From: Escherichia coli
Lineage (GTDB): Bacteria; Pseudomonadota; Gammaproteobacteria; Enterobacterales; Enterobacteriaceae
Reading direction: 5' to 3' (one strand)
NCBI RefSeq assembly: GCF_001677475.2
Contig: NZ_CP015229.1
Length of the DNA: 64,000 nucleotides
Below, in pieces: positions 1-37,799 of the stretch. Position 1 is the stretch's first letter. Each line of letters starts with the position of its first letter. The notes beneath the pieces are model-generated. The model saw only the letters and a program-made list of their open reading frames with translations. It had not been told where the DNA came from and ran no database searches. A program made the translations under genes and the position numbers.

Positions 1-51
1 TTTAAAGGGAGAATGACTAAACACGCGCATACACCTCTTGAACTCATTCAT
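1..51 (-). CDS. mntS: Small manganese-responsive protein MntS, 5' part only (first 17 codons; gene runs off the window start)
   Basis: Reverse complement of 1-51 translates MNEFKRCMRVFSHSPFK, matching the N-terminus of MntS as I recall it; divergent from mntR. Confidence 0.6.
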   Translation of the reverse strand, partial: MNEFKRCMRVFSHSPFK

Positions 52-109
52 AAGACCTCCTGACTTGCTAATCCCGTCGATCCTTGAGGGATGATTGCAT
101 TACATACAG

Positions 110-147
110 ATATAGCACAGGCTATATTATATAGCTATTGCTAAAAC
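110..147. promoter_or_regulatory. Candidate MntR operator palindromes in the mntS/mntR divergent region
   Basis: atatagcacaggctatat (110-127) is an inverted repeat ATAGC-N4-GCTAT resembling the MntR box; a second atagctat palindrome lies at 131-138. Confidence 0.45.
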
Positions 148-236
148 GTTAATTTTTTGTACCTTCGCAACTCTGGTTTACAATGTGCGCACGAAATGAG
201 AACGCTATGTATGCGTCACCATAATGAGGAAGCACA

Positions 237-704
237 ATGAGTCGTCGCGCAGGTATGCCAACAGCAAAAAAAGTGACGCAGTTAGTGAACGTGGAAGAGC
301 ACGTTGAAGGGTTCCGCCAGGTCAGAGAGGCGCATCGGCGCGAGCTTATTGATGATTACGTTGAGCTGATTTCTGACTTGATCAGGGAAGTGGGGGAAGC
401 TCGTCAGGTGGACATGGCTGCTCGTTTGGGAGTTTCGCAACCGACGGTGGCTAAAATGCTTAAGCGGCTGGCAACCATGGGGCTGATTGAAATGATCCCC
501 TGGCGTGGCGTGTTTTTAACGGCAGAAGGAGAGAAGCTGGCGCAGGAAAGCCGCGAGCGACATCAGATAGTCGAAAATTTCTTGTTGGTGTTGGGCGTCA
601 GTCCGGAAATCGCCCGTCGCGACGCGGAAGGCATGGAGCACCATGTTAGTGAAGAGACGCTCGACGCTTTTCGTTTGTTTACCCAGAAACACGGTGCCAA
701 ATGA
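237..704 (+). CDS. mntR: Manganese-responsive transcriptional regulator MntR (DtxR family)
   Basis: 155-aa ORF; helix-turn-helix segment [12 protein letters not shown]; length and sequence match MntR; stop overlaps ybiR start (ATGA). Confidence 0.9.
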
Positions 705-37541: not shown

Positions 37542-37799
37542 TCAGGCGTCCAGATTCTCTTTCACCCATGCAGCAAAATCGGTATAGCCGCCGATATGTT
37601 GCTGATCGACAAAAATCTGCGGCACGGTTTCTACGGGTTTACCTGCCTTTTGTTGTAGATCTTCTTTAGTGATCCCTTCCGCACGAATATCAACATACTG
37701 ATACTGAAAATCATCGCGTTCATTGCTCAATTTCTCAGCCAGATCTTTTGCACGCACACAGTAAGGGCAACCCGGACGACCAAAAATAACGGTTTGCAT
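37542..37799 (-). CDS. grxA: Glutaredoxin 1
   Basis: 85-aa product from MQTVIFGRPGCPYCVRAK; CPYC active site. Confidence 0.92.
   Translation of the reverse strand: MQTVIFGRPGCPYCVRAKDLAEKLSNERDDFQYQYVDIRAEGITKEDLQQKAGKPVETVPQIFVDQQHIGGYTDFAAWVKENLDA

Follow-up and report, generated by a model that had tools for sequence, protein, structure and literature searches.

Positions 110-146 of the window, which is the whole stretch of 64,000 nucleotides of Escherichia coli DNA analyzed here, most probably correspond to the operator already known for the mntS (rybA) promoter, formed by two 18-bp MntR boxes lying 1 bp apart; we put the probability of this reading at about 0.87. Repression of mntS by MntR has been known since 2011, and the two-site architecture, with a spacing like that of mneP in B. 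subtilis, appeared in a 2024 paper (PMC11275975). MntR:Mn2 was reported to repress mntS (PMC4361602), the RegulonDB curation gives MntR as repressor of mntS under manganese treatment (PMC4207228), and a PmntS:egfp fusion was repressed by Mn(II), an effect that was lost in an mntR deletion and restored by plasmid-borne mntR (PMC9806134). The two MntR sites controlling mntS overlap its promoter, spaced as in the mneP array of B. subtilis (PMC11275975). The first three of these sources on regulation support the Mn-dependent repression of mntS that the initial annotation had suggested for the region. Our literature search, with Waters 2011 and Yamamoto 2011 outside its reach, found no MntR footprint elsewhere in the intergenic region, and a literal search of papers for the box sequences gave no match. 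The existence of two promoter-overlapping sites is thus taken from the literature, as is the dependence of the repression on manganese and MntR, while the match to MntR boxes, its statistics, the conservation of half-site cores and gap, and the overlap with the annotated 5' end were computed here.

Two boxes between the divergent genes mntS and mntR

The first 1 kb of the window, in which mntS, mntR, and ybiR are annotated, matches 5,421 of 5,426 complete E. coli genomes, and positions 1-236 are identical, base for base, to the divergent mntS-mntR region of K-12 MG1655 (K-12 coordinates are obtained by adding 852,946 to the window position). Read from the minus strand, the 5' part of the mntS coding sequence occupies positions 1-51, with its start codon at 51..49 and beginning with MNEFKRCMRVFSHSPFK, and the remainder lies beyond the edge of the window. 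The adjoining gene mntR (237-704, plus strand) encodes the regulator that binds the boxes; its product matches PDB 2h09, the E. coli MntR, with E = 1e-96. The initial annotation was therefore right in placing the palindromes between the divergent starts of the two genes. In comparison with K-12, mntR displays two differences, at window positions 256 and 426. The first, T here and C in K-12, results in Met at residue 7 instead of the Thr found in K-12 and in PDB 2h09, within an N-terminal extension that B. subtilis MntR does not have.

Box 1 (positions 110-127, ATATAGCACAGGCTATAT) reads ATATAGC-ACAG-GCTATAT, a perfect 18-bp palindrome of 7-4-7 layout whose arms, 110-116 and 121-127, are 100% complementary with 4 nt between them, and judging from these letters it would be a strong operator. 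Box 2 (positions 129-146, ATATAGCTATTGCTAAAA), which reads ATATAGC-TATT-GCTAAAA, is predicted to be a weaker 18-bp box with the same 7-4-7 layout. A single base pair, at position 128, separates the two, giving a layout of 18 + 1 + 18. Both sequences named in the initial annotation, ATATAGCACAGGCTATAT at 110-127 and an adjacent small palindrome, ATAGCTAT, at 131-138, were located correctly, and both indeed resemble MntR boxes. What did not hold is the description of the latter as a separate 8-bp palindrome: it is contained in the 18-mer of box 2, and the better description is a second 18-bp box at 129-146. That the second element might be a copy of box 1 was first indicated by the repeat finder, which showed 80% complementarity between 113-127 and 129-143. 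The neighboring positions in the same 19-bp register (72-89, 91-108, 148-165, and 167-184) each carry 10-12 mismatches out of 14, so that there are two boxes only, and a scan of the mntS-mntR spacer with the box 1 pattern revealed, apart from the boxes themselves, nothing better than 6 mismatches.

For comparison, the sequences upstream of mntH, mntP, and dps in K-12 were scanned with the box 1 pattern. This revealed ACATAGC-CTTT-GCTATGT upstream of mntH, ATTTAGC-CAAA-GCTATGT (site 1) and ACATAGC-TTAG-GCTATAT (site 2) upstream of mntP, and GTATAGC-ACCG-GCTATGT upstream of dps. The consensus is AYATAGC-N4-GCTATRT, and its core, TAGC-N4-GCTA, is invariant in six out of six sites. From this consensus, box 1 departs at none and box 2 at two of 14 positions, with the core intact in both. 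The MntR-operator likeness proposed for ATATAGCACAGGCTATAT is thereby confirmed, since it fully matches the box upstream of mntH, mntP, and dps; an alignment with the mntH and mntP boxes likewise revealed an 18-mer common to both, and also to dps. The two mntP sites lie 22 bp apart, about 143-184 bp upstream of the transcription start (using a 229-nt 5' UTR), which agrees with the published description of sites "over 20 bp" apart and "~170 bp" (PMC11275975), so that the comparison set appears to be right. The mntH box was also found to lie inside an annotated small ORF, ypeD (b4819), which overlaps the mntH start (positions 1722-1739 of our sequence L002, whose stretch 1688-1777 is part of the K-12 mntH upstream region).

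Allowing at most two mismatches, the pattern AYATAGC-N4-GCTATRT matched three times in the 64 kb against 0.42 matches expected, and two of these are the adjacent boxes. The third match, at 37582-37599 (GTATAGCCGCCGATATGT, 2 mismatches), was treated as a chance occurrence in view of that expectation and of a GATA that replaces the GCTA core; no complete ORF of at least 100 aa covers it. A weight matrix was trained on the mntH, mntP (two), and dps sites only, the mntS sites being omitted to avoid circularity. With this four-site matrix, the training sites reached 24-33 bits and box 1 reached 26.0 bits, a score that was never attained in 200 dinucleotide shuffles, whose maximum averaged 10.0 and peaked at 21.4. 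The matrix scan therefore picked out box 1, but not box 2 by its score alone: with so small a matrix the latter reached 5.3 bits, and 3.8 such scores are expected per 64 kb.

Conservation in the Enterobacteriaceae and the case for the second box

A scan with the MntR protein, taking one genome per species, provided 80 loci from Escherichia, Citrobacter, Salmonella, Enterobacter, Klebsiella, Raoultella, Kluyvera, Kosakonia, Leclercia, Lelliottia, Atlantibacter, and other genera, and the alignment contains 71 distinct intergenic sequences, in which about 20 genera are represented. In nearly all of the 80 loci, mntS and mntR are divergent, and box 1 is followed by a second box at a distance of exactly 19 bp. 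Throughout the 71 sequences, the half-sites of box 1 are invariant except for A or G at position 17, the same R that is seen among the known sites, and the only other variation of this box is in its spacer (ACAG, ATAG, ACGG, ACGA, or ATGG). Box 2 hardly varies at positions 2-7 and 12-15 but varies freely at positions 1, 10, 11, and 16-18, and essentially every sequence retains its core, TAGC-N4-GCTA. The 1-bp gap, and with it the 19-bp register, is found in 71 of 71, with no insertion or deletion in 105-165; most of the variable columns belong to the spacers or to the outer positions of box 2. In about one sequence out of six, by comparison, ATAGCTAT is broken (as ATAGCTAC, ATAGCCAT, or ATAGCCAA) while the TAGC and GCTA cores and their spacing are kept. 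This means that the second element is the 18-bp box and not the small palindrome, and the independent 8-bp element, broken as it is in several genera in which the 18-mer cores persist, was rejected.

The whole block 99-162 is strongly conserved, beyond the boxes alone, and conservation by itself therefore does not single out the boxes. Two promoters lying back to back could be the source of part of the conservation of box 2. On the evidence of the aligned sequences, the boxes are singled out by the choice of columns that vary and by GCTA at 140-143, which is invariant: these four positions fall into the spacer between the -10 and -35 regions of mntS, where RNA polymerase imposes little constraint, and their invariance argues for a bound protein.

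Two stretches next to the boxes share this conservation. The first, ATTACATACAG (99-109), corresponds to about +10 to +20 of the mntS transcript and is as invariant as the boxes across the 71 sequences. It is not accompanied by any likeness to an MntR box in that register, 91-108 having 11 mismatches out of 14, and an RNA structure was rejected as its cause, the fold of 118..40 being no better than those of shuffled sequences (z = +1.2). The second, CGTTAATTTTTTGTAC (147-162), is nearly invariant between the divergent promoters and probably serves as the -35/UP region of mntS on the minus strand and as the UP/-35 region of mntR (TTGTAC, 157-162) on the other.

It may be argued that only box 1 is functional, and that box 2 has been conserved for promoter reasons, since it covers the upstream part of the -10 and the spacer of mntS and is a neighbor of the mntR promoter, its likeness to an MntR box being a by-product of an AT-rich promoter. 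This would be in line with the low matrix score of box 2, whose right half, GCTAAAA, departs from GCTATRT, with the equal conservation of the flanks 99-109 and 147-160 despite their lack of box likeness, and with the repression of B. subtilis mntH through a single high-affinity site (PMC11275975). We nevertheless consider it unlikely. TAGC-N4-GCTA occurs in the 64-kb window at 113 and 132 and nowhere else, and a match with at most two mismatches at either of the positions that give a 1-bp gap has a probability of about 2e-5 at the base composition of the intergenic region. The variation of box 2 follows the 7-4-7 layout, and several genera have a near-consensus right half; in Enterobacter and Lelliottia it reads GCTATTT, closer to the consensus than the sequence of E. 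coli. Besides the invariant GCTA in the promoter spacer, the description of two sites in the literature (PMC11275975) speaks for a pair of boxes as well.

The two promoters and the proposed mechanism of mntS repression

RefSeq annotates the 5' end of the RybA/mntS transcript at position 853064 of NC_000913.3, which is position 118 of the window on the minus strand and falls on the center of box 1. Counted from this annotated end, box 1 extends from about +9 to -9 and box 2 from about -11 to -28. A perfect TATAAT hexamer at 131..126 (minus strand), read by eye, is the putative -10 element of mntS/rybA. Located 7 nt upstream of the 5' end annotated for RybA, it reaches from box 1 across the 1-bp gap into box 2. 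Positions 1, 2, 4, 5, and 6 of the hexamer are conserved in the 71 sequences, and position 3 (window position 129) is free. On the minus strand, a simple promoter scan gave no canonical pair of -35 and -10 elements and no -35 above the threshold; the best candidate for the -35 of mntS is an uncertain TTAACG (152..147) with a short 15-nt spacer. Scanning also gave no terminator by which the length of RybA could be confirmed. For mntR, the putative promoter (157-184, plus strand) consists of a -35 TTGTAC (157-162), a 16-nt spacer, and a -10 TACAAT (179-184); both hexamers are conserved across the 71 sequences and were missed by the simple scan.

With the boxes over the transcription start and the -10 element, the layout fits repression by promoter occlusion. 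We infer that, when manganese is plentiful, Mn-loaded MntR dimers would bind to both boxes, probably cooperatively, with the strong box 1 helping to load the weak box 2. Together, the two dimers would cover about +9 to -28, that is, the transcription start, the TATAAT, and most of the spacer, so that RNA polymerase would be kept off by occlusion and mntS would be switched off.

Another proposal is that the paired sites mainly serve the autoregulation of mntR: bound at about -53 and -72 relative to the putative mntR start, MntR would either activate mntR-ybiR transcription or dampen it, with only a secondary effect on mntS. The nearer end of the boxes is located 11 bp upstream of the conserved -35 of mntR, the distance between boxes and hexamer is free of insertions and deletions in the 71 sequences, and MntR can activate from upstream sites both at mntP and, in B. 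subtilis, at mneP (the latter reported in PMC11275975). Against this, the boxes overlap the start and the -10 of mntS and not the core promoter of mntR, no third box lies on the mntR -35 (148-165 has 10 mismatches out of 14), and the mntR start site from which these distances are counted is itself putative. Moreover, the sources on regulation name mntS, and not mntR, as the regulated gene (PMC4361602, PMC9806134, PMC4207228). Taken together, we regard such a primary role in mntR control as very improbable. An origin of the palindromes by chance, in an intergenic region that is AT-rich (59% A+T), is refuted by the shuffles, none of which attained the score of box 1, by the conservation across genera, and by the 18-mer shared with three other MntR-regulated genes, and its probability is negligible.

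Relation to other operators and biological meaning

Among mntS, mntH, mntP, and dps of E. coli, the boxes are alike in being 18-bp inverted repeats of 7-4-7 layout with a TAGC-N4-GCTA core and in sharing MntR as their regulator. They differ in arrangement: mntH and dps have a single box each while mntS has two, the pair of mntP, with its sites 22 bp apart, is located far upstream and is activating, and mntS alone has two boxes that abut, 1 bp apart, right on its core promoter.

The closest architectural parallel is found in B. subtilis. Shi et al. described by cryo-EM four MntR dimers on the mneP regulatory region, bound to 18-bp sites "each separated by 1 bp" (PMC11275975). At mneP and mneS, where each 18-bp site consists of 9-bp inverted repeats, a weak site is helped by its neighbor via dimer-dimer contacts, and the authors themselves remark on the identical spacing at E. 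coli mntS (PMC11275975). Adjacent 18-bp sites with a gap of exactly 1 bp are thus common to the mneP array and mntS. In contrast, mneP carries four weak sites and mntS two boxes, one of which is a strong perfect palindrome; mneP is activated, with one site over the -35, whereas the output reported for mntS is repression; and the half-site sequences differ. The mntS pair is therefore not a member of the activating mneP-type arrays, though it may be similar to them in cooperativity.

This similarity was also considered at the level of the protein, where an ungapped alignment places each E. coli residue at the B. subtilis number plus 32. Of the interface residues, Arg24, Asp27, Arg58, and Gly59 are conserved as Arg56, Asp59, Arg90, and Gly91 of E. 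coli MntR, while Lys20, Tyr22, and Glu55 are changed to Val52, Glu54, and Ile87. In B. subtilis, Tyr22 is essential for cooperativity, which is abolished by its mutation, and its partner Glu55 is essential as well (PMC11275975). With Glu54 and Ile87 in their place, cooperativity through the same interface is unproven for E. coli, and the shared spacing is insufficient as proof. The base-contacting residues His35-Pro36-Ser37 of B. subtilis correspond to Ser67-Gln68-Pro69 in E. coli, a change in the recognition helix that fits the different half-site sequence. A further likeness exists to DtxR/IdeR, SloR, and Zur, for which several dimers bind cooperatively to a promoter-overlapping operator and provide a steeper response to the metal (PMC11275975), a cooperativity that we infer for mntS. 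In the case of DtxR and Zur, however, the dimers bind a common operator on opposite DNA faces, whereas at mntS each box is a separate 18-bp site that does not overlap the other.

A prophage insertion site was also found where the two boxes meet. In 30 of 5,426 complete E. coli genomes, a count that rests on the junction sequence of the mntS side only, a P2-like prophage is located at a 9-bp core, TATATTATA (123-131), where box 1 meets box 2. One of these genomes was examined, that of strain 160-11H1 (our locus L086, NZ_AP031375.1, 3298000-3330000), and revealed a remnant of about 8.85 kb between locus positions of about 670 and 9530. It encodes an integrase, CI, CII, Fil, and Dam, contains fragments of the replication endonuclease and portal genes, and carries cargo genes for a serine O-acetyltransferase and for a protein with a reverse-transcriptase domain. 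TATATTATA, the core that is duplicated, is the -10 region of mntS. In this strain, box 1 and the TATAAT remain with mntS, which is cut off from box 2 and from its native upstream DNA, and box 2 remains with mntR. After insertion of the prophage, mntS would thus have a foreign -35 and box 1 as its single box, and lysogeny might rewire manganese control. The reconstructed attP of the P2-like prophage had no match among phage records, and in our literature search no paper linked P2-like integration to mntR.

From the geometry of the region and the junction sequences, a wider reading can be drawn up, in which the boxes would form a bidirectional element that occludes the mntS promoter and at the same time tunes mntR-ybiR, with dimers in contact through an interface other than that of Tyr22, and in which lysogeny would rewire manganese control. 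We consider this combination speculative and rather doubtful.

As a discovery, the paired operators carry little weight, being already documented. What has been gained are the exact coordinates and register of both boxes, the location of the -10 element across their junction, the recognition of the second box as a real 18-mer, deeply conserved, instead of an 8-bp palindrome, and the finding that Tyr22, on which cooperativity depends in B. subtilis, is not conserved in E. coli MntR. The paired mntS operators are an ordinary and already known regulatory element, and one that is real and strongly conserved.
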